From positions 94,596,880 through 94,660,879 of the forward strand of contig JARFYF010000094.1 of assembly GCA_030265395.1 (NCBI GenBank): a DNA stretch of 64,000 nt. The letters run 5' to 3'. The stretch comes from Rhina ancylostomus (Eukaryota). Each line of letters begins with the position of its first letter. Positions within the stretch are counted from its first letter, which is position 1. Under the pieces are notes generated by a model. That model saw only the letters and a program-made list of their open reading frames with translations. It did no database searches and was not told the origin of the DNA. The translations under genes and the position numbers were made by a program. Shown here piece by piece: positions 3,086 to 62,860 of the stretch.

Positions 3086-3440
3086 CTATTGGGTGCTGTG
3101 TTACTTGAAAGAAGGACTGGAAATTTTATGTTTCTTTCTGATCATCACCCATTAAGATGGATGTAAAGATTTTGGATGGTAGAATGGAGACTTACTAGGA
3201 AGTCAGAGCTGGGTCCACTTTTGTTTGGGCTGTGTACATTCTTTTAAATTTAGGTGCAGAGAATGTAGTAATGATGCTTAATGACAATATAAAAGGAGAG
3301 AAGCAAAATAAATGAAGAGATTTAAGGAAGGTCTGTTCCTTCCTTAGGGTAGTAAGGTGACATACAGATGAAGGGGCATTGTCCTGAAATGTTGACTCTC
3401 TTTCTTTCTCCATAGACGCCACCTGACCTGCCAACTGTTT

Positions 3441-3716
3441 CAGAATCAGAATCAGAATCAGGTTTATTATCACTGACATATGTCGTGAAATTTGTTATTT
3501 TGTGGCAGCAGTGCAGTGCAAGACATAAAGACATAAAAGTTACTGTAAGTTACAAAAATAAATAAATAGTGGAAAAGAGGAACAAAGGATCGTGTTCATG
3601 GGTTCATGGACCATTCAGAAATCTGATGGCAGAGGGGAAGAAGCTGTTCCTGAAACATTGAGTGTGTGTCTCCAGGCTCCTGTATCTCCTCCCTGATGGT
3701 AGTAATGTGAAGAGGG
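3441..3716 (-). mobile_element. Rex1/Babar LINE 3' end, nested in a Penelope terminal-repeat module (about 3360-3735)
   Basis: (CAGAAT)3 tail followed by GGTTTATTATCACTGA, then gaagctgttcctgaa...ctcctgtatctcctccctgatgg (the LPSGRRYRS region on the minus strand). The host module resumes with gcattttctgttttt. Confidence 0.75.
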
Positions 3717-5984: not shown

Positions 5985-6580
5985 GTATGCAGTGATTGCC
6001 CTGCATTTCCAGTTGCCTGTCACCTTTGTTCTCCTTCCCTTCGCTTTGGCCTGCCTCTGTACGGCTTCATGAACTGTCTTGGTGGCTTCAATGGCTTCCT
6101 GCACAGTGTCAATGAGGCCCATCATCTTGCATCTCAGGCACATTGCAGCCCTCAAAGCTTCTGTGATGGAGCTTTCTTGTTCTGTTATGGGTTGTCCACC
6201 TCTTATGTCAGCTCAGTTTTCCTTTTTCCTTGGGAATCTGCTAACTTTCCCTTTGATTTTGCGTTTCACCAGCAGCTCTGTATTCTGTGTCCCTTTGTTT
6301 TCTCTCTAACTGTCCTCAATGGTCTGTTTGCCAGATGCCCCTCAAGGCTGGTAGCCGTGGCCTCTCCCTATTGAAGATGTCCCCTGTCTTGTCTGCCCCT
6401 CCCCCAGCCTCCCCGCTCTTGAATCTAATGTGTTTTCTCACCTTCCTAGTTCTAAAGGAAGGTCTTCAACCTGAAACGTTAACTTCGTTTCTCTCTCCAC
6501 AGATACTGTCTGACCTGCTGAGTGTTTCCAGAAGTTTCTGTTTTTATTTCAGATTTCCAGCATTTTCACTTTTCGATTTT
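5985..6580 (+). mobile_element. Penelope-like element 3' end (GIY-YIG C-terminal remnant, pyrimidine-rich UTR, terminal module)
   Basis: PVACHL.SPS resembles the LVARHFN.PS segment at about 44260-44300(-). The terminal module gaaggtcttcaacctgaaacgttaact...ccacagatactgtctgacctgctgagt lies at 6447-6580. Confidence 0.7.
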
Positions 6581-9080: not shown

Positions 9081-9260
9081 ATGCGGGCTCCCCTGCTGCT
9101 CCTGGGCACCGCGGCTCTGCTGTCGGCCGCCAGCGCCGCCCCTCTGAGCCCGTGTGCCGGCCGGCCCTGCCTCAACAATGGCACTTGTCTAACTTTCCAA
9201 GGGCAGGCGACGTCCTACAACTGCTCCTGCAGCCCCGGGTTCGCGGGTCAGCACTGCCAG
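9081..9260 (+). CDS. DNER: First coding exon of a Delta/Notch-like EGF repeat-containing transmembrane protein (signal peptide + EGF1); gene continues beyond the window
   Basis: ATG at 9081 has G at -3. The 60 codons read MRAPLLLLGTAALLSAASAAPLSPCAGRPCLNNGTCLTFQGQATSYNCSCSPGFAGQHCQ: a hydrophobic leader plus a 6-Cys EGF, ending CAG|GTAAGG (phase 0), inside a CpG island. As I recall the human protein, DNER exon 1 has the same layout (signal peptide + EGF1 in one exon, AAPLS..PC, ending G..CQ) before a very long intron. The symbol is from recall, not a search. Confidence 0.85.
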
Positions 9261-9710: not shown

Positions 9711-10254
9711 GTGGACACTGTCACCCAGTGTGGGATGTGGCGGGGAGCCGCCACTCCCCAGGCCGGCGGCTGACGGCTGGGTTCCGGGAGGAACTTCGAC
9801 GGACAAGGTGATTCAATGACAGCGGCCGGCTCCTCCCTCACTCCCCGCGCCGCCCGGACCTCCCATGGAAACCGGTGGCTCCACATCGCAGGAGTTGTGG
9901 CAGCCCCGGACGTGGCTGCCCTGGAGCGGCGGAGCGACCATCGCGGTGACTTGTCGATGGCCGGACACACACACAACCAGCCCGAGTGGCAGGAGGGTGT
10001 CTCCGGCCCATCATGTGCACTTTCCCCGGAGTTAATACGTGTGTTTGGAGACGGCGGATTTAGCCATTTGATCGGGAAATCTAATCAAACGGCGCGTTGA
10101 AGCCTCAGTTCCTCACCCAACCTCAAACCGGGACAGTGGGTGATGGCAGGTGAGCGAGGGCCCAGCGGCGGGTTCGCTTCCTCAGTTCTGCCCCCACCTC
10201 AATCAAACATGTTGCTCCGCTCGAACCTCTGCTGATGTTCTCCGCGAACTCCTT

Positions 10255-10606
10255 CCCCCTGTCCCCTCCCTTCTCCTCCCTTCCTCTCCACTCCCCTCCC
10301 CCATCTGCCTCTATTTGCATTTCTCCCTTATCTTATTTCCTCCTATCACCCATCAGCCTCTGTCTCTAATCTCCCTCCTCTCCCTCCCTCAGCTGTTTCT
10401 ATCTATCCATCAAACTCCACCTCACCTTGTTGCACCTATCACCCACCAGCCCCCATCTCATCCCTCTCTCTTACCTCTTTATATTGGTTATCTTCGCTGT
10501 ACTCTTGGTTCTGATGCATGGCCATGACCTGAAACTTCAGCTATCCCTTTGCTTCCACAGATGCTGCTTGACCTGCTGAGTTCCTCCAGCAGTTTGATTT
10601 TTGCAA
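10255..10606 (+). mobile_element. Penelope 3' end with terminal module
   Basis: The body (cctatcacccaccagcc...cctctttatattggttatc) matches 43420-43520(-). It is followed by ctgatgcatggccatgacctgaaac and ccacagatgctgcttgacctgctgagttcctccagc. Confidence 0.75.
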
Positions 10607-11384: not shown

Positions 11385-11653
11385 AGGTATCAAAACACAC
11401 AGTGGAATGCATCTTTTGCATAGAGTGTTCTGGGTGCAGCCCGCAAGTGTTGCCACGCTTTCGGCACCAACATAGCATGCCCACAACTTCCTAACCTGTA
11501 CATGTTTGGAATGTGGAAGGAAACTGGAGCACCCAGAGGAAACCCATGCCAACATGGGGAGAACATACAAACTCCTTACAGACAGCGGCATGAATTGAAC
11601 CTGGGTCCCTGGTGCTGTAATAGCGTTATGCTAACCACTACACTACCGTGCCT
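11385..11653 (-). mobile_element. V-SINE with Rex/Babar-like 3' tail
   Basis: The minus strand has a tRNA head (GGCACGGTAGTGTAGTGGTTAGC...GGTTCAATTC) and a V-domain. The tail GCATGCTATGTTGGTGCC...GATGCATTCCACTGTG is the same type as at 43843-44123. Confidence 0.85.
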
Positions 11654-13506: not shown

Positions 13507-13750
13507 GGGCGACAGGGTAGCGTAGCAGTTAGCGCAATGCTATTACAGCACCAGTGATCAGGGTTCGATTCCCATCGCTGTCTGTAAGGAGTTTGTACGT
13601 TCTCCCGTGTCTGCATGGGTTTTCTCTGGGTACTCCAGTTTCCTCCCACATTCCAAAAACATACGGGTAGGTTAATATAGGTTTAAATTGGGTGGCGTGG
13701 ACTCGTTGGGACAAAAGGGCCTGTTACCATGCTGTAAATTTAAAAAAAAT
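13507..13750 (+). mobile_element. HE1-like V-SINE with CR1-type tail
   Basis: A-box-like TAGCGTAGCAGTT, B-box GGTTCGATTCC at 13562-13572, V-domain GGAGTTTGTACGTTCTCCC...TTTCCTCCCACATTCCAAA, and tail GGGCCTGTTACCATGCTGTA. Confidence 0.85.
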
Positions 13751-14959: not shown

Positions 14960-15096
14960 TTCCAGTCCTGATGAAGAGTCTCGGCCTGAAACGTGGACTG
15001 TTTATTTCCCTCCATGGATGCTGCCTGACCTGCTGAGTTCCTCCAGCACTTTCTGTGTATTGCTCCAGATTCCAGCATCTGCAGAGTTTCTTGTGT
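14960..15096 (+). mobile_element. Stand-alone Penelope terminal-repeat module
   Basis: Complete module with no adjacent Penelope body. Confidence 0.8.
14963..15000 (+). ncRNA. Minimal type I hammerhead ribozyme motif (cleavage triplet mutated to GUG)
   Basis: CAGTC-CTGATGA-A-GAGTCTCGGCCT-GAAA-CG-TG-GACTG. Stem I (CAGTC/GACTG) is perfect, both core boxes are intact, and stem III is the palindrome ACGT. Confidence 0.7.
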
Positions 15097-16084
15097 AATC
15101 CTTGCGTTTGTTCAGGGTCCCAAACGAACCGCTCTGTAACCACGGTCCCTTTGAGGAGGGGGCCGTTTGCTCTACGTGGTTCGGCCTTGTTGTTTCTCAC
15201 ACCTCGTCCCCTTCTCTTCACAGCCTCTGCCCAGAAAGCCTTGAAGTTCGACTAGACCAGGGCGACGTGAAGCTGCGTCGGATGGGCCAACCACCTTGAC
15301 GTGCGGGCGGTCTGCGGGTGTCGCGCTGCCATGTCAGTCGATCAGCCTCTCCCTGGACTTCCTGCGGCCTCCCGAGAGGATCTGAACCTTCACAAACAAA
15401 TCGGCCCTGGGTCAGGTCAAGCCTGACCCCCTTTGCTCGTGCATTGTGGGAGTGGGCTGGTTGGCGTTGGGGCTTTTAATTATTCTCACATCCCTCCCTC
15501 CCAGCGAGGACCCCTTCTCCCCCCCCCCCCCACCTCTCTACTCCCCCTCATGTACATGTGTTGGGCACATGTTCAGTTCCAGTGACCCAACCCAACAACC
15601 TTGGGACCCAGCCCAACTCCAGTTCATTTTGGAGTCTCTACTCTTTTTCCCAAAGGGAAGGGTGGGTCAGCATCTATCCAGAAGTTCTCTCGCAATCAAA
15701 CTGGCTCCACCCCATCACTGCCCACTCCTTCAGGACGGTAACTATAGTCTCCAGGATCCAAGCAGCGACCAACATTGTCCACGAAGCTTTGTGGCAGTGT
15801 TATCAAACCAACATTGACGTCTGACGCCCCTGGCTGGACGTGAGACCAAGTGACTCGAAACCCCTGCTCCCTCTGCACATTGTGACCCCACCCCACTGCC
15901 CAGGAGTGGCCCGGAACCTCCAGGAATTGAAGACAAGTTCGCCATAGATGCCCGTGAGTGCCCAGACTGCGGAATGCATCCGAAGAACGTTATGTGTTTT
16001 TAAAAAAACGAAAGCACCCTTCAGTATTTTTGGGATAGGGGAGAGGAAAGGATGTTTGTTATTTGGGGAGCTGGTGGCTGGCTG

Positions 16085-17019: not shown

Positions 17020-17220
17020 TAGCAAACGGCCTGCTGGACGAACTCAGCGGGTTGAGCAGCATCTGTGGGAGGAAAGGAACTGTCGACACTTCAGGTGGAA
17101 ACCCTGCAGGAAACATCGACAGTTCCTTTCCCTCCCCCACAGACGCTGCTCGACCCGCTGAGTTCCTCCAGCAGATTGTTTGTTGCTCCAGATTCCAGCA
17201 TCTGCAGCAATGGTGTCTGA
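17020..17220. repeat. Head-to-head inverted pair of Penelope terminal modules (hairpin)
   Basis: 17031-17086 is a near-perfect reverse complement of 17116-17174. Confidence 0.9.
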
Positions 17221-19059: not shown

Positions 19060-20266
19060 CAGGCTAAATTTTCCCAACAGATCCCCATCCTCTTTAACTA
19101 GCACCTCAGAATATGAGAATCCATTGAATAATCCTCAGTGTGGTTACTGAATGGGCCAAGAGCTATATAAAATAACAGAATTTGGATTCAGTTTCAAGTT
19201 ATATCACTAATCACGGGGTTTGGGAAATGTTAGCAATCTAATAGATTTCTTTCACTTCAGGCCAACGAGAACTGATATTGGTTTATAAAAATGAATTACA
19301 TCTTCATTTTATGAACTCTAAGTAGAGAGGAGCAATTGCTTCCAGGATGAAGGTTACCTCTTCTGCTAATCTATGGATTGCAACTGATTGATAAACTTTA
19401 TGAATAAAGTTTATTATTGATAAANNNNNNNNNNNNNNNNNNNNNNNNNNNNNNNNNNNNNNNNNNNNNNNNNNNNNNNNNNNNNNNNNNNNNNNNNNNN
19501 NNNNNNNNNNNNNNNNNNNNNNNNNNNNNNNNNNNNNNNNNNNNNNNNNNNNNNNNNNNNNNNNNNNNNNNNNNNNNNNNNNNNNNNNNNNNNNNNNNNN
19601 NNNNNNNNNNNNNNNNNNNNNNNNNNNNNNNNNNNNNNNNNNNNNNNNNNNNNNNNNNNNNNNNNNNNNNNNNNNNNNNNNNNNNNNNNNNNNNNNNNNN
19701 NNNNNNNNNNNNNNNNNNNNNNNNNNNNNNNNNNNNNNNNNNNNNNNNNNNNNNNNNNNNNNNNNNNNNNNNNNNNNNNNNNNNNNNNNNNNNNNNNNNN
19801 NNNNNNNNNNNNNNNNNNNNNNNNNNNNNNNNNNNNNNNNNNNNNNNNNNNNNNNNNNNNNNNNNNNNNNNNNNNNNNNNNNNNNNNNNNNNNNNNNNNN
19901 NNNNNNNNNNNNNNNNNNNNNNNNNNNNNNNNNNNNNNNNNNNNNNNNNNNNNNNNNNNNNNNNNNNNNNNNNNNNNNNNNNNNNNNNNNNNNNNNNNNN
20001 NNNNNNNNNNNNNNNNNNNNNNNNNNNNNNNNNNNNNNNNNNNNNNNNNNNNNNNNNNNNNNNNNNNNNNNNNNNNNNNNNNNNNNNNNNNNNNNNNNNN
20101 NNNNNNNNNNNNNNNNNNNNNNNNNNNNNNNNNNNNNNNNNNNNNNNNNNNNNNNNNNNNNNNNNNNNNNNNNNNNNNNNNNNNNNNNNNNNNNNNNNNN
20201 NNNNNNNNNNNNNNNNNNNNNNNNNNNNNNNNNNNNNNNNNNNNNNNNNNNNNNNNNNNNNNNNNC

Positions 20267-20401
20267 TCGACTTGAAATGTTGACTGTTTATTTCCCTCCG
20301 TCGATGCTGCCTGACATGCTGAGTTCCTCCAGCATTTTGTCTTTTGCAGTCCAAAGAGAGATTTTAAATTCTCTCTCTCAGCATCTGCAGAATCTCTTGT
20401 G
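20267..20401 (+). mobile_element. Penelope terminal module emerging from an N-gap, with a 34-bp internal insertion
   Basis: ctcgacttgaaatgttgactg...gatgctgcctgacatgctgagttcctccagc...cagcatctgcagaatctcttgtg. Confidence 0.8.
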
Positions 20402-22664
20402 ATTGATAGCAAGGACAGATTTTGCAGCATAATCAAATCACAGTTCAGTAATGCACCTTTAATGAATGCCACTTTGTAAACAATAGAGAATTTGGGGAAT
20501 AAAGAAAGGAACTACTTGTGACATTTTTATATTACTTTCTGTCTATCTGTTATCTGGTTTCCCCAAAGCCAGTGATTTGAAAAAGTTAGTATGAGTTTTG
20601 GCCTCCTGGGTCTGTCTGCTCCAGGTCTTAACATGTGCAATGTAGTCTATTGCATCGTGGACTGTTCAATCCCTGTGGCGTTATCCTGTGATGTCAGTGA
20701 TATAAGGCCATAAAGTTTTCTCATATTTTGTACCATGACTTTGATTGCTTTGATTCCAATCATATTTAAAGTCTAATGCTCATTGACGTCTGTGAGCAAT
20801 TAAATTGCCTTAGGGGCAATGGTGATTTGTTGCTCAGTGGGTGCAGTTTGCCTCTGCTATAGTCACTGAGAGAGAGAATTTAAAATCTCTCTTTCGACTC
20901 TTGAAAGTTATCAGAAGGTCCTCTTGAAGGGTAATAGAAAGAGTTGCAAATTAGAGCAAAACCTATTGATGGGAGAAGTGAGTTCAAAATTTGAATGTGG
21001 ACTGAGGGAATCAATTAAAAGTTGGTGGAGTTTTGGATGGGTCTGTCTATTTGATTCCTCCACATGTAAGTTTTTAGTTTATTTTCACTGTGGTAGGCAA
21101 GCACTGCTTAGGGGGAAAGTTGACAGTGCCGTTCTGTGGTTACCTCTTCCTATTAAGGAAGGAAATACTTGATATTATTGGAAGATACCCAAGTGTAGCC
21201 TTGGGATCCTGTCCCTTAGGCAGATATGGTGATGGATATAGGAAGGCCATAGGAATTTTCAAGGAATTTGGAAACAAGTTCCTTCCAAGGAGTCAGAATG
21301 AAGGAAGAATTTTCAAATTATTTCACAGAATTAAGACTTTCCGTACAATCCCTAACAACAATGGTTCAGTTATTCCAACTGGAACAGTTTGAATAATTGA
21401 AGATAGCATTTAGTTCCTGAACCAAAAAACTTCTGTTGCTTCATTTGCTATGCTCAATGTCAATAGTACAGTAGCATTTAATTTATTAAACTCTGGGTTT
21501 TGATGAACTGTCCTTATTATAAATCGGCCATTGTGAATATTTCATCATCTCTTTGTCTCCATGGTACTGCATATTTTGTCCTGAATAATTGCATAGAATG
21601 CATATTTAGTGAGGTATGATCCATGTCACCAAGTTAATCTGCTCTTGTATTTATTAATTGCATAATTATTAATTACTTCAGTGTAAGTTGTCATATATAA
21701 AAATCTAATCACATTTATAATCTAATGCTCAATGACATCTGAGACATTAAGTTACATTCTGCTTTTCACAAAAGATTCTTATTCGCTGTATGGGGTAGTT
21801 CGTGAAGGCACATGGTATACTCAGTTTTTGACTATTGAAAATTGAACATTTTTGTTCAATTTAAACTCTTAGCTCTTTTTATTACGGTATAATTTGTTAA
21901 TTTTGTGGTGAAATATTTCGAGTTATGATAGATATAGAAAAATTTCTATTAAAAATACAGTGATTTTTAAAAATCAGAGCTCCTTAAAAGATGTGTCTGG
22001 CCCTATTTTAATATTTTCAATTAGCATATCCTATTTGATTGTGGTATCAAAATCAATAAAAATGTCTTAAACTGTCCTACCCAATTTGTGTGGTTGGGAT
22101 AGGACATCTTCACAAGGAAAACTATTGTGACGTGGTCAACAGATAGAAGACAGAAACTGCTGTTTATATTTTACAGTCATACCTCCCATGATTGCTATAA
22201 TTCCTATTGGTCTTGACCAGTAAGAATTATATAGGATAGAAAAGATATTTCCTAAGATATTTTCCATTCTATAGATAGATTTAATGTAGATAGACATTGT
22301 ATCGACCTACAGGAAAGAAAAGATATTGGGAAAGGGGGCATGTTCCTCAATCAATCTATGCAAGGAAACTTTGTAAAACATGTGCAGAACATAGATCACA
22401 TATCAAGATATGCAGGGTATCTTGTATTTTTATATTAACGTGAAACTTTAGCACATTTATATACCATTCATAATGATAATCTGGCAAACAACTTATTCTG
22501 GACCTTCCATCACAGATAAATCACTATGTACTTTGGCTATTGCAGGTACATATTTTATCTACTTTGCACAGAACATTCATGGAGGAGCCTAGACTGAAGC
22601 AAAAATGAGTCAAACTTAATCAATGTATGACTGAATCCTATCCTTTTAATACACTGCATATGTC

Positions 22665-25415: not shown

Positions 25416-25930
25416 CATTGAATGATTTTCTACAGTACCTTTAAAAGTAGTTACTGAGATGCAAATATGATCAAGAGCATAGAATTTTCAATATCAGCTG
25501 GAAGATTTATTTCTGTGGAAGAAATGAAAAAGATGTAGACAGTACACTGCGTTGGCATGGGCAGCAGTGAACATTGGAGGAGATATGAGTGAAGGTGATC
25601 ACTTTGGAATTTCAGTCTGTTCACTAATGATACTAAAGCACAGGAGCTCATCAAAGTTTCTCTACTGATTCACTTTATCCTGGCACAAACATATATTCTG
25701 GTAGATACCCCCTTTGTATGAAGGACAGCTTTTGAGGTATTTCTTTTCCAAATTTGAATTTTTATATCAGATTAGTATCAAAGAATTGTTTCAGCACAAA
25801 AGGAGGCTATTCAGCCTTTCAAGTCAATGCCAGCTCCTGTCACTCCCATTTCCCTTTTTTTCCTTTAGTCCAGGAAATCAATTTCCTTCAAGTGTCTTTC
25901 AAATTCCCATTTGAATGCTCAGATGATATA

Positions 25931-26435
25931 TCAGAATCAGTTTTTATTGTCACTTCCATACACACTTACAACATGCATGGGAGCGAAATACTGTACTCCA
26001 CAGATCAAGGTGCTGGTCACATTAAGGACAATAAGAGACATGCAAAGACATAAAGACATTAACAACATTGGAATCGCATTAAAAAAGAGACTAGAATAAA
26101 AAAACAGCTTAAAATGAACGTACTGATGCCACAGTCAGACATGTAAAGTGCTGGTGCATTTTTGTACGCCTAGCATCCTTTAGGGTTGGAGGAAGGGATG
26201 GAGGGATGGGGGCAGCATTTTGAGGGAATTCATAGTTCTGATGGCTTGTGGGAAAAAGCTATTGCACAATCAGTTTGTTCTTGCACGGATGCACCAGAGC
26301 CTTCTTCCGGATGGCAAGGGGTGCAAAGAGGTGGTGGGAGGGGTGAGAAGGGTCAGACATTACGTGTGTTGCTTTTCTGACACGACGGTCCATATATATG
26401 TCTGTAATAGAGGGTAGAGAGACACCCACAATCTT
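25931..26435 (-). mobile_element. Rex1/Babar LINE 3' end, same family as 30000-31100
   Basis: Colinear with and highly similar to 30000-30505. Confidence 0.85.
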
Positions 26436-28362: not shown

Positions 28363-28615
28363 TGTGCAAGACAAGTTTTTCACTGTACCTCGGTACAAGT
28401 GACAATAATAAGCCAATACATGCTGCTTGACCTGCTGAGTTCCTCCAGCAGATTGTTTGTTGCTCCAGATTCCAGCATCTGCAGTCTCTCTCGTGTGTCC
28501 AGGGAATGGAGGGACGTGGATCAAGTGCAGGCAGACGGGATTAGTTTAAATTGGCATCGTGGTCAGCACAGACCTGGTGGGCCAAACGGCTTGTTCCTGT
28601 GCTATGTTCTGCGTG
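28363..28615 (+). mobile_element. Composite: Rex/Babar tail + Penelope module tail + CR1 tail
   Basis: cactgtacctcggtacaagtgacaataataagccaatac, then gctgcttgacctgctgagttcctccagc...gcagtctc, then ggtgggccaaacggcttgttcctgtgct. Confidence 0.7.
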
Positions 28616-29999: not shown

Positions 30000-31100
30000 T
30001 CAGAATCAGAATCAATTTATTGTCACTTCCAATTCACTTTCAGCATGCATGGGAGCGAAATACCGTACTCCACAGATTGAGGTGCTGGTCACATTAAAGA
30101 CAATAAGAGGCACAAAGACAGAAAGACATTAACGACATTGGACCTGTATTAAAAAGAGACCCGAATAAAAAAACAGCTTAAAATGGATGTACTGATGCCA
30201 CAGTCATCAGACACTTAAAGTGCTGGGGCATTTTTGTATGCCTAGCATCCTTCAGTTTTGGAGGGAGGGATGAAGGGATGGGGAGCAGCATTTTGAGGGA
30301 GTTCATGGTTCTGCTGGCTTGTGGGAAAAAGCTATTGCACAGTCTGGTAGTTCTTGCACGGCTGCTCTGGAGCCTCCTTCTGGATGGCAAGGGTGCAAAA
30401 AGGTGGTGGGAGGGGTGAGAAGGGTCAGACATTATGTTTGTGGCCTTTCTGACACATCGGTCCGTATATATGTCCGCAATGGAGGGTAGAGAGACACCTA
30501 TAATCTTTTCTGCAGGGACTTTCGTCCAGCGGCTGAACAGCTCCCATACCAGATGGTGATGCAGTGTGTCAGGATACTCCCAATGGTTCCTCTATAAAAT
30601 GTTTTCATGATGGATGGAGGGGAGTTCACTTTCCTCAATCTCCGCAGGGAGCAGAGGCGTTTCTGGGCTTTCTTAATGAGGGCTGTGGCGTTGATGGACC
30701 AGTTCAGGTCGTCGGCGATGTGCACCCCCAGGACCTGGTGCTGCTGATTTGTTCCATCACAGACCCGTTGATGGTCAGCGGGGCGTGCACACGCCGACCC
30801 TTCCTGAAGCCCACTACCATCTCCCCACATTCAGGGAGAGCTTGTTCCTGCACCACAAGGCCAGTTGCCTCACCTCCTCTCTGCAGTGCGTTTGATCGTT
30901 GTTCGTGACGAGACCCACCACTGTCGTGTCGTCGGCCAATTTAACAATGTGATTGGAGCTGGATCTGGCCTCGCCGTCGTGAGTCGGCGACGTGAACAGG
31001 GGCGGGCTGAGCACACAGCCCTGAGGGGAGCCAGTGCTCAGTGTGATGGTGCTCGAGGTTTTCTCCCCTATTTTGACTAACTGTGGCCTGCACGTGAGAA
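30000..31100 (-). mobile_element. Rex1/Babar LINE, 5'-truncated, with frameshifted RT C-terminal half
   Basis: Translates TGSPQGCVLSPPLF, IVKLADDTTVVGLVTNND, LGVHIADDLNWS...KKAQKRL..LRRLRK...FYRGTI.SILT.CITIWYG and DPSHPSHHLF.PLPS.RR...TTRL.NSFFPQA. Has a (TCTGAT)n tail. Confidence 0.9.
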
Positions 31101-32399
31101 AGTGAGAAAGAATATCCTGTTCATATAAAGATTTAACATGTTAAAATACAGCAATAATCATAAAACTAGTTCCTTAACCTGACGAACAGGCAGTCTTGCA
31201 CCTGGTCGCAGAAAACCCAATCCAAGGTAATGATGAAATTGGATTTCCCATGTGACAGATACCTGTGGACTGATTAACCTGTATTTCAGTCTTTGCGATT
31301 TTGCAGCACATTCTCCAAGGAGAAGGCTAAGTAGGTGATTGTGGGGGTGGGATAGAGGGGAGGATTGAATTCAGTTTGATTGATGAGAAGGAAAAATAGT
31401 CTCTGATTACATTTCACAAATCTGCAGAAGCTAAATATTAGCTGTTAGGTTTACAGGAGACCATAAACTATGAACTACAAATGATTAAAGATTCCTTTAA
31501 TGCTCAAGTGACTTTCTCTGTACTTTATTACACTAACAAGATGGTGATTGAACAAATGATTATTTATGATTCAATTCCTGTTAGCCTAAGGAAAGGGTTC
31601 TATAAATGTGAATATGCACAATTCTATTTAATATGTTGAACATTACCAGAGAATCAGTTTATAATGGCTTACATCAATAATATAACGATTGTACTTTAAC
31701 GAAAGAAACATATATTGATTTGAATCCTGCTGCATCCATGCTGAAGTGACCTTATCAAATGTGATGGTAAATTTGAAAAGGTTTCTACATGTTTTATAAT
31801 ACTAATAAAGTATTGCAGTGCGCTTGATGCCATAAGCCATGCACAATAGTTTCTCATGTGTAAGTCCATTACAAAGTGAGTTCCTGAGCTGCCAAAAGAG
31901 GAAAGGCACGTGGTTGAAAAACAGCTACTTATCCTGCTACTCTCATGCAACTTTTAACAGAGTAACACGCAGTGATGATATCTCTAGAGGCCTGGTAGCA
32001 CAAACCCACCTCCGTCACTGCTCCTTGCTTTCTGCTGGACTGGCAATTTTAAAATCTGCCTTTGTATCTAAGGTTGCACTAAGCCAGTGGTAAAAGGATT
32101 GCTTAGATGCCAATGTCATTGATAGTAGGCATCCATGGAAATATTCAAAGAGAGATTTGCAGTTTTAAAAAATTAATTCTGCACCAATTAAAGAGCCATT
32201 TCCTGCCTTTACATAATATACAGTCTCTTGGCACTGCTTTGTGTAATACTAAGTGGTGTGTGGCAGCAGGTCCCAGGGCTGTTCCCAATCACTCTTTCTT
32301 ACAGAACAAAACAAATGAGCCATATTCCCCCATACAGTGGGACCCATCATGCCCAAACTTTCTTAACCTGAGTTTGCCTGGAATTTGCTTTTTTCTACA

Positions 32400-36848: not shown

Positions 36849-37016
36849 AATCTGAAATAAAAACAGAAATGTTGGAAGTACTCACCAGGTCAGAGAGCTT
36901 CTGTGGAAGGAGAAACAAAGTTAAGGATTGTTGATCTAAATCATTAACACTGTTTGTCTTTCCACAGGTGCTGCCTGGCCTGCTAAGTGTTTCCACCGTT
37001 TTCTGTTTTATTTCAT
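36849..37016. repeat. Head-to-head inverted pair of Penelope terminal modules (older subfamily)
   Basis: 36849-36924 is the diverged reverse complement of 36943-37015. Confidence 0.75.
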
Positions 37017-38779
37017 GCTTGAATACTCTGGCAACAGTTAATTGAGGCAGTGGAGGCTGCCACCCAGTAGAAGTGTTCAGTATTATTATAAACCATCATT
37101 TCCCTAAAATAGAGTTAAAAGAAATGAGACCCTGAACACAAGACTGGCTTCAAGGGGCTGGTTGGGTGTGACGAATGTTGACATCTGACCATACATATTC
37201 AGTTTGAAAATTGTTCTCATTGTTTCCATAGATTTCAAGTGGCTAATACCAATCTATGTGTTCTGATTTAGGACTTTCCTATCAAGGTAGCAATGGTATA
37301 AAGCATCATCTTTCTGAATCCAAAGACCAAGAAAATCCTGAACAAACCCCATACCAACAATTCAATAAAATCACAAGTAGGACTGGGCTTCTGAGCCAAA
37401 TTGCCAGGGCTTGTCCACAAGTTGATAACATCTGTATTAATATATCAGCCATCATGTTCAATGGTTGAACTGAGTGGGATTCTTTTTGTCAAAAAGAGTA
37501 GATTGAAAACAACAAAGTCTTTTATGATTATAAACACAGAGTTGATGTTTCCAATTCTGTGGGAATCCAAAACCAAGATTCTTAAGTTTAAGAATCTAAT
37601 AAGGAATTCAAGAGATTGGTGATAGCAGGGAACTCAATACCATTTGGAATGGTTGAGTGAATCCCATAAGTGCATTTTTGAGGATGTGAGATAGGTACAT
37701 TGAGGGAGAGAGGAATAAAAAAATATGTTGCTGGGAGAGATGAAGTAAGGTATGAAGAGGGTCATCAGCAGAAAAATAAACCTGACAGAGCAAATGATCT
37801 GTTTATGCAATATAAACTTCAATGTAATATTTGTTGGCTTGTTTTGGTATTGAACAGACAGTCTGAACAATCTATATCCTTACTGATTATTTAAATGCTT
37901 CAGAAATGTTCCTGCAACTGAACATAGTTTTTCAAATCTCTATTTCAAATGATAAAGTGAATGGAAGGAACATGACAAATTTTAAGAAATAATTCACAGA
38001 ACTAAATTTAATTTATAGCTTTTAAAGAAGCGACCAGTGAAAGTGGATAGCTGCTAAATTATTGCAGTGTGATTATGGACTGAACAAGAGCAACTAATTC
38101 TGAAATGTGGGAACTGATCCATCCACTGTTTCTGAATGATGTTGTCACCTCACCAGTCAAACTATTGGTTTCCTTTATGCCTCCTAGATCTGCAATCAAT
38201 GGAGACATTTGTAATTTAGGTCATTTGTTTCAATGCCTCAGCAAGATACCATGATCTGTTCTCAGTATGAGAGAACAAACATGCAAACCACAACAGAACT
38301 TTATCTAAGACACTGCAGAAGTATGAAACTGGCTTGAAGTGGTTCATTTATTGATGTTCCCTCCATCCTAAATGTTTTCTGCCTCTTGCACTGTGCAATG
38401 TTTCCTCTAATGACCTGTGTGAACCGATGTGAACTACTACCACAGTCCTGGATTAGTTTATTCACAATTCTATACTTGTAAGCATATATATAAAAATAAC
38501 ATTAAACCCACTCAGTACATCAGACAACAGAAATGGACTTAATATTTCAGGTTGATGATCTGGATTTTGTTTTAGCATTTTCTATTTTATTTCAGATTTC
38601 CAGCCTCTGCCAGTGTTTTTGTTTGTAAACAAGTTACTTTGTTGGACGACCAAGGCTCCTGTGGTAGCTTCCCCAGTAACGTTGCTCTCATGTTTCCTGA
38701 AATTGCTTGGCTGAGATCAAGAAAGAAACTGAGTTCTTGTTCTCTATGTGGTTGGAAACCGTGGCCTTGTTGGAAAGCG

Positions 38780-40514: not shown

Positions 40515-42108
40515 TACTGATTCCTTGTGAACTGTAAATTGTTCTTCAGCTCTTAGATTTATTGCATCGATGTATAATGGAGATCAAAAACTGTCCAAGG
40601 TTCTTTTCTTAGTTTTCCACACCTGCATTCATTACTTCCAGAGAGGTTTTTTTTAATGTGTATAACCATTTATTTAGGAGCCAAGAGGATAATTCCACAT
40701 TCTGAGTTCTTACTGTTCCATGCCAGCTCCGTTCTTATATTTTAGCAGACGAGGCTTAGAGGCAAAATAGGTTGAAAATAGGCAAAATAAGACTAACAGA
40801 TTTTTATTAGACAAGGGCTTACAGGACATGTAATCAAGATGGATGACTGGAATTTACCAATCAGCACAAGCTGATTAGTAGGTGGAACATGCTGAATGGC
40901 CTCTTTCTGTGTGAGCATAAGGTTACAAACACTAACACCTAAGTGATGGTAAAATATACATTTTAGGTGGAAGATATTGAAAGCCTCTGAGGTGAGAAAA
41001 TAAACACTTTGTTAAAGATACAGAATTGTAGCCTACCAGTATGGTTAACAAGCAGGAATTGATTTGAACATATGTTGAACTGCTTCACAGAATGGAACTT
41101 CAATATTTGTAGTTGGCATTAAAAAATGCAAACCAATCTTTCCAAGGAACCTCAGAACTGGACTGATGTGCAGTCTGGGAGAGGTGAGAGAGTGGCCTGA
41201 AATATCTGGGGCTTTTCACTTTCTAAGAACAACTGCCAAAGAAATATCCTGGGTGCAATCGAGAGCTTACCACAAGGAGGATCAGGATGAGAAAGCTAAT
41301 CCTACAATGAATAATTTGTAACATAGTTCATGCTATTCCTGTTAATATCAATCACCCAGGCTGTTTATTAATTTCTGCTCATGTTTTCAGAGCTTCAGCT
41401 CTTCAAGCCTTCTGAATCTCTACTTTTCTGTTGAAGAATCTTATGAGTTTAATTAGGTAGTTTTATTCAGGCAGTGTGTTACACCAAGTACACATACTAT
41501 CGATATTCTTACCACTATTACACATCATCTAAACTATTCTACATTCAAATCACTTCAACTATTCCATGCCTTGCAGTGTACAAATGTTTGTCAGGTAGTC
41601 AGTCTAGGCCAAACCTACCAAAGTCGGAGAGACTTGTTTGACTCCTCCTCTGATAGCAATGGTGATGTTTGTATCTCACCTGCTCTTTATCCTGCTTGTC
41701 TACCCCTGTGAGTGTGTGATCAGCTACATGATCAGTTCCTGATGGGCCACCTAGGCCGTACTCTCCTTACTGGCTGGCCATGTTTCCCTACTGTTATCTT
41801 GTTGCCTGGGCTAAGACTGCCAGACCCCAATGTGAACAGTTTGTCTTGGATAAGTTGGCTATGGCCAAGCTTTATCAGTCTACTGATTCCTTGTGAACTG
41901 CAAATTTTCCTTCAGCTCTTAGGATTTATTGCTTCAATGTATAATGGAGAACAAAAACTGACCACGGTTCTTTCCTTAGTTTTCCACACCTGCATTCTTT
42001 ATTTCCAGAGAGGTTTTTTATGTACTTTACTATTTATTTAGGGGTCGAGAGGATAATTCCACATTCTGAGTTCTTTCTGTTCCATGCTAGCTCCATTCTT
42101 ATATTTTA
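40515..42108 (+). repeat. Pair of about 230-bp direct repeats (40515-40744 and 41881-42108)
   Basis: Both copies run from TACTGATTCCTTGTGAACTG to TTCTTATATTTTA, with scattered substitutions. Confidence 0.9.
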
Positions 42109-42600: not shown

Positions 42601-43309
42601 TAGCTTTTTACTCAAAAACAGAAAGCTTCCTTTAACAACATTTTTTGAGGGTAATATTTAAATTGTGCAATTGTGTAAAAAGGGTCACGATGAATTCTAG
42701 CCATTTTACTCTCTATTCCCACTCCTTGGCATTTAGGGTATGGGAGGCCAACAGTTGTCCACTTCAAGGTGGCTCCTGACCTTGATCAACCACCTGGTCC
42801 TGAGGCATTACCAGAAATGAGGACCTTAGAAGAAGTCCAATAGTGTCCGGCTCAAATTGTAGAATGAGTTTAGTTGGGCAGATTTGGGAGCATTCCCCTG
42901 CAGTAGAAGTTGCTTCTATAAGTAAAACATTTTATCAAACCATTTTTCCAATTCCGTTCTGTTCATGTGTAGCACCTTTGATATCCAAATGTGATTAAAG
43001 ACAACCCAGCCTTTATGAGTACTGTCACTGTTCTTGAATGCTGAAAACCTTAGGTCACTGTTTCCTTTCACCTCCTGGGTTTAACTCCTGTACTAATTGG
43101 CTGGGTGAAACAATTCTTTATAGATCAGTTATAAGATTTCTAAACCTATTCTCCTCATTAAACTGATCAAACTCGCTACTAATTTGCACTATCTCATCCA
43201 GAGGCTCTAATGTATGCCACTCTTAGTAGAGAAATGTACCCTGCATGATACCTGACCTGGAGTGTTCAATTCCATACCCACAAAGAAATAGTGCAGATTT
43301 CTATTTCAT

Positions 43310-45397
43310 GCAGCAAAAAACAAACTGCTGGAGGAATTCAACGGGTCAGGCAGCATCTGTGGAGGAAGAGGGATAGTTGACGTTTTGGGTTGAGACCCCT
43401 GCATCAGGGCTGAGAGTGTAGGGCAAGATAGCCAGTATAAAGAGGTGAGGGGGACTGGTGAGGTAGGAGCCAGCTGGCGATAGGTGGAACCAGGTGAGGA
43501 GGGATATGATGGGCAGATGGACCCAGGTCGGGGAAGGGAAGGGGGAAGTAGAATCAAAGGCTGGAAGGTGATAAGTGGAGACAACAAAGGGCTGCAGATT
43601 CTGGAATCTCAAGGTGATAAGTGGAACCAGATAATGGAGGGATGATGGGCAGGTGGAACCAGTGGAGGAGGAGATAGGAAACCCAGTGAGTAAAGTGTGT
43701 GGCTGATGGGCACACGGAACCAGGTAAGGGAGGGGAAAGAAACTGGGTAACAGGCAGTTGGGGGAGGAGGTTGAAAAGAAGGTGGGGGGAGAGAATCTGG
43801 GTGGATCAGAAGGAGGGTGAAAGGAACACAAGGGCTGTGGGTGATAGGGTAGCAGTTAGCGTAATGCTGTTATAGCACCAGTGACCTGGGTTCAATTCCG
43901 GCCGCTGTCTGTAAGGAGTTTGTACGTTCTCCCCGTGTCTGTGTGAGTTTCCTCCAGGTGCTCCGGTTTCCTCCCACATCCCAAAGACATACAAGTTGTG
44001 GGCATGCTATGTTGGTGCCAGAAGTGTGGTGACACTTGCAGGCTGTCCCCAGAACACTCCATGCAAAAAAAGATGCATTTCACTGTGGGTATCAATGTAT
44101 ATGTGACTAATAAAGATATCTTAAATTGGAAAATTCAATGTTCATACCATTGGGTTGTGGACTACCCAAACAGAATATGAGGTACTGTTCTCTAGTTTGC
44201 ATTTGGCATCACCCTGGTGGTGGAGGAGGCCAAGGGCAGTGTAGTGTAGGTCAGTGTAGGAACGGGAAGGGCAGTTGAAATGGCGTGCTACCAGGAGCTT
44301 GAGATGGTCATTGTGGACAGAGCACAGATGATTGGCAAAGCGGTTGCCTAGTTGATGTAGAGGAGTCCACATCGAGAGCACATTAAGACGAGGTTGGAAG
44401 AGGTACATGTGAACTCTTGCCTCACCTGGAAGGGCTGTTTGGGTCCCTGGATGGTGGTGAGGAAGGAGGTGTGTTGACAGGTGTTGCATCTCCTGCAGTT
44501 GCAGGAGTTAGTGCCTGGGGAGGGGGAGGGATGGTTGGGGAGAGATGAGAGAACCAGGGAGTCACGGAGAGATTGATCCCCATGGAAAGCAGAAAGGGGT
44601 GTGGAGGGGAAGATGTGACTGGTGGTGGGATCGCATAGCAGCTGGCGAAAATGACAAAGAATGGTGTGCTGGTTGTGGAGGCTGATAGGTTGAAAGGTGA
44701 GGACCAAGGGAACTCTTCTGTCTGGGGGGAGGCAGGGTGAGAGCAGAAGTGCGGGAAGTGCAGGACATGCAGGTCATGGCTCCATCAACTACAGTAGAGG
44801 TGCATCCACATCTCCTGAAAAAGGAGGACATTTCNNNNNNNNNNNNNNNNNNNNNNNNNNNNNNNNNNNNNNNNNNNNNNNNNNNNNNNNNNNNNNNNNN
44901 NNNNNNNNNNNNNNNNNNNNNNNNNNNNNNNNNNTCCACATCTCCTGAAAAAGGAGGACATTTCGTATGTCCTGGAATGGAAAGTCTCATATCGATGCAG
45001 GGGAGATAGAAAAACAGAGAGAAAGGGGTGGTGTCCTTGCAAGAGACAGGATGGGAGGAAGTGTATTCTAGATAGCTGTGGGAGTGCGTGGGTTTATAGT
45101 AAATATCAGTGGATAGTTTGTCTCCTGAGATGGAGAACAGAGAGATCCAGAAAGGAGAGAGAGGTGTCAGAAATGGTCAAGTGAATTTGAGGATGGGGTG
45201 GAAGTTAATAGCGAAGTTGATAAAATAGATGAGTTCTACATCAGTGCAGGAGGCAGCACCAATGTAGTCATTGATGTAGCAAAGAAGGCAATGGGGAGTG
45301 GTGCCTGAGTAGTTTTGGAACAAGGACTGTTCCACGTAGCCAACAAAAAGTCAGATGCAGCTAGGGACCTGCTCCAGATTCCAGCATCTGCAGTCTC
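43310..45397 (-). mobile_element. Penelope-like element, 5'-truncated (RT remnant, GIY-YIG, 3' UTR, terminal module), with a 16-bp TSD and an inverted 3' tip
   Basis: The minus strand gives GYVEQSLF...CYINDYIG (decayed RYIDD), EMSSFF, CNCRRCNTC, FQVRQEFTCTSSNLV..CSRCGLLYI and LGNRFANHL...VARHFN. CAGATTTCTATTTCAT occurs at 43294-43309 and 45398-45413. Confidence 0.9.
43843..44123 (+). mobile_element. V-SINE with Rex/Babar-like tail, nested in the Penelope element
   Basis: B-box GGTTCAATTCC, V-domain, and tail GATGCATTTCACTGTG...ATGTGACTAATAAAGATATCTT. Confidence 0.85.
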
Positions 45398-45559
45398 CAG
45401 ATTTCTATTTCATAACATTTGATATTTCCTTGAGCAGGATGCACATTTGTTTCAAAAATCTATATTCATTGTAATACAGAAATCTAACGCTACCAAGTAG
45501 TGAACTAGTCAATGCTATAACAATGTCCTGCAACCACAAGAAACACCTTAAGGTATTAG

Positions 45560-52831: not shown

Positions 52832-52908
52832 NCCTGGCCTGCTGAGTTCCTCCAGCATCATCATGCTTTTCATCTAGATTCCAGCATCTGCAGTCCTTTG
52901 TTTCTCTA
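52832..52908 (+). mobile_element. Penelope terminal-module tail after an N-gap
   Basis: cctgctgagttcctccagcatc...agattccagcatctgcagtcctttgtttctc. Confidence 0.8.
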
Positions 52909-54221
52909 ATATTTTAATATTTCTTCATGGAAAGATTGCATAGGGTAATCAATTGGTTACATGGTAGGTTCTGTTTAATTTAAGAAATAAAGCCTTCAGC
53001 TAAAGATAAGTACATCAAACTAAGTGTGATCAAACAAAATGAAAGCTGAAGATCATGTGAGGCAGACTTTAATCATTAGGTATTCTGAAGAGGATGCTTG
53101 GCTTTGATATTGTCAATTTTATGAAAGTAAAAACATGATTAATTTTCATTTCTCATACTGAAAATAAGCAAAGCCTTTGACGAACGAAAATAAACTCAGA
53201 GGACAAGTCATTAGGATAACTTAATAGGCCTGGTATTTTCTTCTGGTATTGTTAGAGGAAACGTTAAATGTAGTTCAAAAACGCAATTTCAAAACTAAGT
53301 GATTGTTCAGTCATTTTCAGGATTAATATTCATTTATGCAAACCTTTTCTCTTATGCCCCTGCATTAGAATGGCAAAATCATTCCCTTATTATACTGTAT
53401 AATACAGGACCACATGACTGTGTAATGGTGATATTATGACAGGTTTTGAGCTTTTTGAGATTTTTAAGTAAATTATTAAAATGCTTTGGAAGAATTACCT
53501 CTTTAAGATTCTTGTAGAACTCAGTCAGGCATTAGAGGCCTAAAATAAATAAATCTATTCTTATTTTGCCATAAATTTAGCTCCTCATTGCTACAGGACA
53601 ATTCTCTCACGTGCAGCCCATCTCTGTTATGCATCAGGAAATCTCCCTGAAGCTGATGTTCAAATACCATGACAGAACCCTATGACCACAATCCCACCCC
53701 ACACACAGAGCTGAATATCTCCAAGTGAAGTACTTAATCAGCTGTCATTATTGAATTTCTATTGACTATAGAAACTATGATGTAATTCAGCTAATTCTAG
53801 CTCGTATAAAATGGGTGACTACCCATCTAACACTTACAGTACTGAATTAGTTAACACCAACTACGGCTTAAAGTTCAAGAGGTTCTGGATGATATAAGTG
53901 ACAAAATTCATTTCTCCTGTTGAAGTCTTAACATTATTTCTCTTATCTTTAGTTACTTCTTTCATCATGAGCGTTAGCTTAACTGCATGGCTTGTAGTGT
54001 GTTACAGCTTCACTCCCTCATGATTGCCTTGTGCGTGTTGTTAGTTTCCTGGCAAGAATCATGCTCCAGACTGCTGCTGTGAACAGCATCATTTACAAAA
54101 AAGAATTTTAGTAGGAGGAGGATTTACTTTCTCTCTTTATCAATAACTTTTTGAACAGGTGATGGAGGAGAGGGTGCAAGACATTTCCAGTCTATATGTG
54201 ACAGCTGTAATTATCTGCATT

Positions 54222-58610: not shown

Positions 58611-58819
58611 TGAAGGTGATACCACTAACATATGTGGCAGATAGAGTATTGCATGGTTTTGCATTAAGAACTGCTCTCTATGTTGTTGCAGCTCTGTGGA
58701 ACTTGCTTGTAAGTCTGTTTATTTCTAAAGGAAATGTCAGAGTGAGAAGAAGCTAGCACCTTAAACTTACTGAAAAAAACCAGAAAATGCAGATCAGGCC
58801 GCATTTGTGAGAAAAGAAA

Positions 58820-58857
58820 CAGTTAACGTTTCCAATCGAAGACCCTTCATCAGAATT
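58820..58857 (-). ncRNA. Minimal hammerhead motif with intact core, within a Penelope module (about 58765-58857)
   Basis: The minus strand reads AATT-CTGATGA-A-GGGTCTTCGATTG-GAAA-CG-TT-AACTG. The GUU triplet obeys the NUH rule; stem I is weak. Confidence 0.6.
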
Positions 58858-60299: not shown

Positions 60300-61725
60300 G
60301 GTTGTATGCAGAGATATTTCTATAAATATTTAATAATCTGCTAGATAAAGGTGTGGTGGGAAGCTAACATGATGCCTATATTTAACAGGTCAGAACATCT
60401 TCAGGGAATTATACACCAGTCAGCTTAACACTGATGGTAAGAAAACTAATGGAATCTCTACTAGAGGAGAGACTAGAAGAACATGTGAAAATTAAAAGTA
60501 TGTTAATGTCTAGTTTGCACAGACTCTAAAAGGGAATTTTTAAGGTACCAACAGAATAGTCAATGGCACTGATGTAGGTTATCTAGATTTTCAAAGGGCT
60601 TTTGATAAGGCTCGCAACAGTAGAGTGATGTATAAGGTCAGTGAACACACAGCCTTCAGACAGATGATAGAGAGTAGAAGTAAAGTGTAGTTGATCACAG
60701 TGGAAGAATGTGGGTGAAAGTGTCCCCACAAGGATCACTACCAGGACCACTGCTTTCACTTTGAAATACTAATTCGATGGGTAGGGCGGGATGAGGATGT
60801 GGAGTGGTTGGGAGTCAATGCTGAGGCGGCTGCAACAAATAACAGGACGACATTAATAAGCTTGTAATCAGGCAAATAATTGTCAAATAAAGTTCAACAC
60901 AGATATGTATAAGGTTGTATATTATGGTAGGAAGAGGAAATGAAGTTGCTTGTAAGGCAGAAGGTGGTGTAGAGGTAAAAATGGATCTCATAGAACAATC
61001 AATAACATTGTGCCAGAGATTAGTAAGGCAGTTTAAAAAAAAGGCAAAGATGTTACTTCTAAAGTGATAGAATTAAAAATTAAAGAAAGGTCCTGACCCA
61101 AAACGTTGACCACCTGCATCATAGAGTTTTTTTATCTAGATTCCAGCATCTGCAGTCCTTTGTTTCTCTAAAAATTGTGGAGGTTATGTCAAATCTGTAT
61201 CCAGCTTTGGTTAGGCCATACTNNNNNNNNNNGGTGTACTGCATACATTTCTGGTCATCAAGTTATACGGAGGATATAAAGGCACTGGAGAGAGTATAGG
61301 GAGGATTTACAAGGATGGTACAAAAAATGCAAGGACGTACACATCAGGAAAGGACGAACAATCTCGTCTCTTTATTTCTCAAGAAAGGTGAGGGTGACCT
61401 GTTAGATGTCTATAAAATTAAGAGATCCACTTATCAAGTGGATACAAGAGAATGTTTCCATCTGCAGGGAAGAGTATACCTAGAGGTCACCAATATAAGC
61501 TAATCACCATAAATTCCATTAGTAAATTCATATAAAACATCTTTACCCAAAGAAGCATATAAATGTAGAGTGTTTGAAATGAATGGTGTAGATACATTTA
61601 AGGGAAGGTTGACAAGCATAGAAGGGAGAAGGAAAAAAAGGTCTAAGCTGATAGACTCAGATAAGGAAAGCAAAAAATAAATACCAGCATGGACTTGTTG
61701 GGCAAAATATATTGATTCTTTGCCA
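60300..61725 (+). mobile_element. Old CR1 LINE RT region + 3' end
   Basis: DVGYLDFQRAFDK at about 60571-60609; gtccccacaaggatca (VPQGS-like); KALERV.GGFTRMV. Confidence 0.85.
61082..61168 (+). mobile_element. Short Penelope terminal module inserted into CR1, with an 8-bp TSD
   Basis: TAAAAATT at 61074-61081 and 61169-61176. The insert reads gaaaggtcctgacccaaaacgttgacc...agattccagcatctgcagtcc. Confidence 0.75.
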
Positions 61726-62589: not shown

Positions 62590-62860
62590 CAGTCTTTGCC
62601 TTGGTATCACCTTTTTTGTCATTAATCCTTCCTCTCTTCCTCCTTATCACAGACCTGCCCTTTTTGGCTCTCCTACCCTTGCACCTTTTTTCTAGATGTT
62701 AAAACCTGTTCATTTCTAACTTCTCTAAGTTCTGTTGAAAGATCATCAAGTTGGATCATTCACTATTTTTCTCACCACCGCAGTTGCTTGGCTTTCTGAA
62801 CATTTCCAGCACCTTCCTGCTTGATATCAGATTTGGACCATCTGCAACATTTTATTTCTT
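62590..62860 (+). mobile_element. Old Penelope 3' end with a degenerate terminal module
   Basis: Pyrimidine-rich UTR followed by agttctgttgaaagatcatcaa...catttccagcacc...catctgca. Confidence 0.55.

Follow-up and report, generated by a model that had tools for sequence, protein, structure and literature searches.

The window analyzed here, a 64-kb stretch of DNA, carries at positions 14960-15097 of its plus strand one copy of a dispersed repeat of about 140 bases in which the pattern of a minimal hammerhead ribozyme can be read. The question raised by this locus is whether the module is a mobile family in its own right, defined by its ribozyme, or a fragment of a larger element. We consider it likely that the repeat represents the 3′ terminus of Neptune-type Penelope-like elements, with a decayed hammerhead, and that its lone copies are short, 5′-truncated insertions made by these elements themselves. 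The association of ribozyme and element is ordinary in itself; the value of the locus lies in the fossil record of an insertion mechanism.

Copies and subfamilies of the dispersed repeat

The original prediction listed 15 sites for the repeat, and all 15 were recovered by a profile search of the window. A profile built from 7 copies retrieved 15 arms at E ≤ 2e-4 and gave no match in the reversed window. Further arms, at 38508-38561(-), 38574-38619(+), 45369-45397(+), and 61085-61167(+), were picked up by a fuller profile, whose best match in the reversed window had E = 1.4. Because the profiles were derived from the very copies they found, the reversed-window control is the sole independent part of this result. 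The arms occur at a density of roughly one per 3 to 4 kb. Two features of the predicted family had to be revised. The sites at 17020, 36849, and 38505, described as plus-strand single copies, are really minus-strand arms of head-to-head pairs. In place of one family with one length of ~140 nt, we found at least four subfamilies (A to D), with pairwise identities of 48 to 93% and copy lengths of about 30 nt to 2 kb.

The flagged copy (14960-15097, plus strand) belongs to subfamily A and consists of the hammerhead, downstream stems, and a tail, its 5′ end lying about 9 to 20 nt before the core. Another subfamily A copy (20266-20401, plus) is tailed and has a short insertion ahead of the tail, and its 5′ end falls into an assembly gap. 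At 20348-20381 there is a palindrome-containing stretch of 34 nt that recurs, inverted and 97% alike, at 20866-20899; one of the two interrupts the module at 20267 ahead of its tail. Subfamily B includes a longer, tailed copy with about 90 nt of upstream repeat (6364-6575, plus) and a longer, old copy with upstream repeat and tail (62640-62858, plus), and these two (the 6447 and 62725 sites) have the 90 nt in common (score 32; shuffled, 18). A short subfamily B copy (58771-58857, minus) is tail-less and starts about 3 nt before the core; its core letters are intact and its stems mismatched. Two head-to-head pairs also belong to subfamily B: one at 36849-37015, and a decayed one at 38505-38622 (minus arm 38505-38561, tail-less; plus arm 38562-38622, tailed).

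Subfamily C is represented by a short, tailed copy (2477-2612, minus) starting about 11 to 15 nt before the core and by a long, tail-less copy (10230-10604, plus) with about 280 nt of upstream repeat in common with the body element described below (score 164; shuffled maximum, 77), both bearing the core change A9C. It also includes a tailed piece without a hammerhead (28419-28498, plus), which adjoins another repeat and a gap on its 5′ side, and a head-to-head pair (17031-17208) in which both the tail-less minus arm (17031-17108) and the tailed plus arm (17110-17208) begin within the hammerhead. Subfamily D comprises a tailed piece with its 5′ end in a gap (52833-52909, plus) and a short, tailed copy that starts in the core and carries an internal deletion (61082-61168, plus). 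A short, decayed copy (3364-3443, plus) starts at the core and adjoins another repeat on its 3′ side. It has a weak A-rich upstream extension in common with the 61082 copy, a likeness for which no null was computed. The internal deletions of the copy at 61082-61168 and of one in a related locus (L027:1981-2035) are ~50 nt long, start in or just past the hammerhead, and may be template jumps. The head-to-head pairs at 17031-17174 and 36867-37001 would form long hairpins if transcribed, and their microRNA-like Rfam scores fall below gathering thresholds.

The hammerhead at the level of copies and families

The flagged copy contains a minimal type I hammerhead pattern at 14963-15000 (plus). Stem I (14963-14967 and 14996-15000) pairs CAGTC perfectly with GACTG and encloses the core CUGAUGA (14968-14974), an extra A, stem II (14976-14987), GAAA (14988-14991), and the palindrome ACGU (14991-14994). 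The core reconstructed in the original prediction fits this stretch letter for letter apart from two departures: the cleavage position (14995) is occupied by G, and stem II contains an A·C mismatch. A G at the hammerhead cleavage position is barred by the NUH rule, and on these letters we predict that the flagged copy is noncleaving. The second stem I that had been pointed out, AGTT/AACT at 6448, is present, but the core of the 6447 copy is broken.

Decay is general among the window copies. Only 8 arms span the core region completely, and no module copy passes a minimal-hammerhead descriptor scan of the window; the two matches returned by the scan lie outside the module and are without stem I. 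The same descriptor does detect intact motifs in two related loci, L030 and L013. An Rfam search of the window up to E = 10 gave no hammerhead match. The 58765 copy keeps the core letters and has lost the stems, and the remaining copies have core changes, the CUGANGA box being intact in the 14960 and 58765 copies and in L030. Of the 8 window copies in correct register, 4 retain an intact palindrome, and single-copy folds are no better than those of shuffled sequences (z of -1.1 to +1.0). At the consensus level, the GAAA, the palindromic 15.1-16.1 segment replacing stem III, and the UH are all present, and the CUGANGA box with one extra base ahead of stem II is found in the consensus of subfamilies A and B. 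Column agreement among the window copies is 107/127 in the core versus 121/169 and 133/196 in the linkers. We predict that the window copies are dead and drifting neutrally.

Covariation among 9 window copies alone, in an alignment partly out of register, is at shuffle level (317/500), as expected under neutral decay. Given this null, related Neptune-like loci were fetched by protein; metagenome contigs supplied 29 of them and genome contigs 1, with 40 to 63% identity in the best segment. The window profile matches the L030 hammerhead 130 nt behind the ORF (E = 4e-4 in 80,714 nt) and, more weakly, the spot behind the ORF in L026 and L007. A cross-family alignment was assembled from 13 rows (7 fetched-locus motifs and 6 window copies). 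It contains 16 doubly changed cells, versus 6.8 in shuffles, and gives a covariation score of 0.46, versus 0.29 in shuffles, none of the 500 shuffles scoring as high. Slid registers score 0.14 or less, and the 8 ungapped rows agree with the full set. The 13 rows stand for about six families, and their relatedness inflates the test, so these numbers are not to be read as probabilities. The covariation proposed for stem I thus holds for stems I and II once related elements are added, but not among the window copies alone.

Together with the fit to the published consensus, this family-level covariation bears out the assignment to the minimal type I hammerheads of Penelope terminal repeats. Viewed across the family, the motif is a genuine minimal hammerhead, of which each window copy holds a fossil. 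The pseudo-LTR hammerheads described by Cervera and de la Pena (2014; PMC4209133) resemble those seen here in their U-rich lead, short stem I, CUGANGA box with an extra base, stem II opened by G-C, GAAA, CG palindrome, and UH. They also occur mostly alone, in many families per genome, and in opposite-strand pairs. A point of difference is stem II, which measures 4 to 5 bp in the repeat described here. That report places minimal hammerheads in fish Neptune, coelacanth, and Xenopus, with thousands of lone ones from Penelope ends in the latter two genomes. A term search of the searchable portion of its supplement gave no shark or ray row, and our literature search returned no match for Penelope-like hammerheads in cartilaginous fish.

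Subfamily C departs from the common core. It reads CUGAUG-C-A, with C at position 9 (A9C), in all four copies that cover the site, at 2603(-), 10511(+), 17108(-), and 43407(-), which places it outside the CUGANGAH consensus given for metazoan Penelope hammerheads in PMC4209133. In the part of the literature covered by our search, there was no match for A9C in a hammerhead catalytic core. Since subfamily C spread with this change, either cleavage may not be needed or the change may be tolerated by the core. Among the fetched loci, the cores at L007:1468, L019:3571, L026:2091(-), and L027:1988 read CCGACGA or CCGAUGA, with C at position 4.

The body element and two kinds of 3′ end

A 5′-truncated, frameshifted Penelope-like ORF was located by tblastn at 44119-45365 (minus). 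Read in order over 45365-44119(-), its pieces are the end of a reverse transcriptase (RT), a thumb, a CX4CX2C linker lying between RT and endonuclease (44351-44728, minus), and a GIY-YIG endonuclease with CCHH; the CxxC and the two His segments can be read in the translated window. The best tblastn piece is 60% identical to the query protein, P0001, over 129 residues, and Pfam GIY-YIG matches P0001 at E = 4.6e-4, below the curated cutoff. The closest named proteins (3 among 350 candidates) are from Mobula hypostoma and Hypanus sabinus, which makes an origin in a cartilaginous fish likely, and viral contigs yielded no relatives. The 3′ noncoding part of the element (43310-44118, minus) is interrupted by a SINE. 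It ends in a tail-less subfamily C hammerhead copy (43310-43416, minus; core start at 43407, changes A9C and G12A), with which the 2.1-kb element closes. An inverted, tail-only arm of 29 nt (45369-45397, plus) stands at the 5′ end, and the whole is flanked by a 16-bp target duplication (45398-45413 on the left and 43294-43309 on the right, in the element sense).

Domain layout, linker, and arms suggest that the body element is Neptune-type, a CX2-5CxxC linker being common to Neptune and Nematis (PMC8557442). Neptune-clade EN+ elements share with it the order of RT, Cys linker, and GIY-YIG with CCHH, and also strong 5′ truncation, an inverted 5′ arm, and target duplications; inverted arms and a tail of 30 to 40 bp at one end are reported for Penelope-like elements (PMC8557442, PMC3846280). 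The hammerhead motif lies in a Penelope-like terminal repeat here (43310-45365) and also in L007, L019, and L030. We found no second body, full-length copy, or tandem copy in the window. Subfamily C is the only one with a body in the window, and bodies for A, B, and D are presumed.

Three further observations concern this element and its relatives. A tail-like piece of 30 nt (43582-43611, minus) sits in the element's untranslated region between 14-nt direct repeats. It was considered as a tail-only insertion and is ambiguous, an old internal duplication being the alternative, because the surrounding region is internally repetitive and the 10505 copy partly aligns across the piece. An identical 30-nt stretch at 44805-44834 and 44935-44964 flanks a 100-N gap and is probably an assembly overlap. 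Finally, a contig assigned to a bacterial metagenome-assembled genome (MAG) carries, at L030:43-1370, a piece of Neptune-like ORF together with a minimal hammerhead that is intact; this is probably animal DNA that was carried along.

Counted from the first core base, the 3′ ends of the repeat fall into two classes, at about +98 for tail-less and about +128 for tailed arms. The difference is an optional tail of 30 to 35 nt, found in the flagged copy at 15064-15097 (plus). Only one arm is tailed in the body element, in the 17031 pair, and in the 38505 pair; in the 36849 pair, the plus arm has no tail and the minus arm enters a gap within the tail region. The fetched locus L019 has the same layout as the body element, with a tail-less direct copy behind the ORF and a tailed inverted arm in front. 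Tail-defining start sites ~100 to 130 nt past the hammerhead are likewise described for Poseidon of Anolis carolinensis (Frangieh et al. 2024; PMC11167929). For this anole Penelope element, the report gives two start sites, nicking of both strands, and uncleaved RNA as the dominant substrate. Poseidon differs in belonging to another clade, and the passages of that report consulted here do not mention that 5′ ends cluster at the hammerhead. The model of two start sites would be widened from the lizard Poseidon to a Neptune-type family by what is seen here, namely two kinds of 3′ end, tails on one side, and head-to-head pairs.

Downstream of the hammerhead, a two-stem domain is predicted at 15016-15080 (plus), with an outer stem at 15016-15023/15073-15080 and an inner hairpin at 15030-15048. 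In the flagged copy, this predicted fold has a z-score of -0.5. The stem columns are the best kept of the module (outer stem, 83/90; inner hairpin, 70/79), and a similar pair of stems forms in the folds of L017, L019, and L030 despite a different sequence. The domain is a candidate for a combined protein-binding and start signal.

5′ ends and the origin of the lone copies

The 5′ ends of 17 arms could be placed, leaving out 20267 and 52832 (gaps) and 28420 (adjoining another repeat). Ten of these ends fall within the core of the hammerhead or along its 5′ edge (-20 to +21), namely at +21, +19, +17, +9, +4, +4, +2, -3, -12, and -12. The others lie at about +99, +97, +70, -88, -92, -284, and -1960; the +99 end is that of the ambiguous piece at 43582-43611, and counting it works against bunching. 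No end falls at the cleavage site (+28/+29), the nearest being at +21, and the template is thus indicated to be uncleaved RNA, which bears on the role of the hammerhead in these elements. At most 0.8% of simulated random-truncation runs placed 10 or more ends in their best 42-nt window, a figure tempered by boundaries set by eye, a window chosen post hoc, and pair arms that are not independent. With single copies counted by themselves, the figure is 5 of 10, and old copies of very small size easily escape notice. The bunching is suggestive rather than established. The idea of a continuous 5′-truncation distribution for the lone copies agrees with lengths from ~30 nt to 2 kb, but not with ends that bunch at the hammerhead. 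The majority lines of subfamilies A, B, and C show a pyrimidine tract ending in AG ahead of the core. An intron that ends at helix I is on record in Drosophila virilis (PMC4209133), and no common spliced leader or 5′ head was found ahead of the short window copies.

If the lone copies are truncated insertions of Neptune-type elements, the element's protein would bind its own RNA near the hammerhead and nick both strands. By analogy with the findings in PMC11167929, copying would start internally on the RNA, at positions about 98 and 128 nt past the core start; two start sites and nicking of both strands would give rise to tail-less and tailed ends and to head-to-head pairs. The template would be uncleaved, and copying would often halt within about 140 nt, at the hammerhead or its 5′ edge. 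Most likely, the template's 5′ end would lie immediately before stem I, or the enzyme would stall at stem II, and stopping there would produce the module size of ~110 to 140 nt. The products would then be joined singly or head to head. In active master elements, the hammerhead may cleave weakly, as a dimer via the ACGU palindrome or with help from protein.

A more specific proposal, which we advance tentatively and hold to be possible rather than probable, is that the Neptune hammerhead region is a strong stop for the element's own RT, so that the commonest product of transposition would be a "strong-stop" insert of ~110 to 140 nt. Copying from the downstream two-stem domain would end at the 5′ edge of the uncleaved hammerhead. 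Bunching like that in the window is seen in unrelated families, with an L019 arm at +4 (duplicated as L020) and a pair of L027 arms at about -1 and -8; further ends in fetched loci lie, by local match, at -5 (L027) and -8 (L026), and also at -131 (L022) and beyond -245 (L017). Such inserts would explain the thousands of lone minimal hammerheads in animal genomes. The term "strong-stop" does not occur in the related papers that were checked for it. At the arm density of the window, a cartilaginous-fish genome would offer very many copies bearing on this idea and on the A9C variant.

A different origin is that the short module is a separate nonautonomous element, SINE- or retrozyme-like, that has its own transcription and makes use of the Neptune protein. 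We judge this unlikely. Two of its premises do stand: the module is far commoner than Penelope bodies, with about 19 arms versus 1 body in 64 kb, and a lone copy (61082) is flanked by an 8-bp target duplication (61074-61081 and 61169-61176), a common word of 8 or more occurring in 1.7% of 2,838 random flank pairs. The bunched 5′ ends (10 of 17 in 42 nt) would also suit a separate element, not being predicted by plain random truncation. Terminal repeats are movable in trans (PMC3846280), and animal retrozymes derive from such repeats, one chondrichthyan genome being positive (bioRxiv 10.64898/2026.07.22.740005). Against these points, the module falls into four subfamilies, and B and C each hold both short and long copies. 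On a tree of 16 of the 18 arms, without a starred branch and hence weakly supported, short and long copies require 4 changes versus 3.7 when shuffled and thus appear intermixed. Instead of one sharp 5′ boundary, the ends cover about 35 nt, and no common 5′ head was found.

Animal non-LTR retrozymes resemble the module in being noncoding, hammerhead-bearing, related to Penelope repeats, and dispersed as monomers (PMC7229834; bioRxiv 10.64898/2026.07.22.740005). Their defining traits, however, are tandem units arranged head to tail and circular RNA (PMC7229834), whereas the window holds single copies and head-to-head pairs. The module is absent from all 5 tandem arrays of the window, and pattern scans of genome, viral, and metagenome contigs gave 0 matches to it. 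The retrozymes of PMC7229834 have canonical type I hammerheads (6-bp helix I, loop-loop contacts, and a short helix III), whereas the core here is of the minimal type; minimal motifs are also admitted for retrozymes in the bioRxiv report, which reads retrozymes as derivatives of Penelope terminal repeats. A separate, ribozyme-defined, retrozyme-like family, as originally suggested, is not supported: short and long copies appear to intermix, tandem units and starts at the cleavage site are absent, and the tails and inverted arms are ordinary for Penelope elements, features already in print for them. Lone hammerheads in excess of bodies were likewise described in PMC4209133, where they are read as "probably related to truncated PLEs", so a separate family is neither needed nor favored.

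It is very improbable that hammerhead cleavage, with or without circularization, makes the template and that the ribozyme thereby defines the unit copied. This route was proposed for these elements in PMC4209133, and compensating changes preserve the motif in families that are distant from one another. The ends tell against it, with 0 of 17 starts at +28/+29, 8 arms that span the whole core, and none circularly permuted; so do the spread of subfamily C with C at position 9 (4/4 copies) and the report that ribozyme mutants left in vitro insertion unchanged (PMC11167929). We give almost no credence to the view that the pattern is a chance or protein-binding sequence, or that the lone copies are deletion or recombination relics of longer elements, for although there is no Rfam match, no copy passes the descriptor, and a deletion origin was suggested for rotifer solo repeats (PMC3846280), the cross-family covariation and the fit to the published consensus oppose the former, and the target duplication and inverted arms round short copies point to direct insertion.

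Several other features were noted in the window. Three tRNA-headed, SINE-like copies (11395-11645, 13513-13668, and 43845-44090) are 81 to 86% alike, with a weak tRNA match at 13511-13583; the copy at 43845-44090 is inside the 3′ noncoding part of the Penelope element. LINE remnants with a weak RT match lie at 25930-26435 and 30005-31140, the two copies being 87% alike over 510 nt. A 230-nt direct repeat (40515-40744 and 41881-42108) is 89% alike between its copies. A segment at 9090-9260 (plus) encodes a signal-peptide-like stretch and one EGF domain (Pfam EGF, E = 2.8e-7), followed by a splice donor, and is probably the first exon of a host gene.
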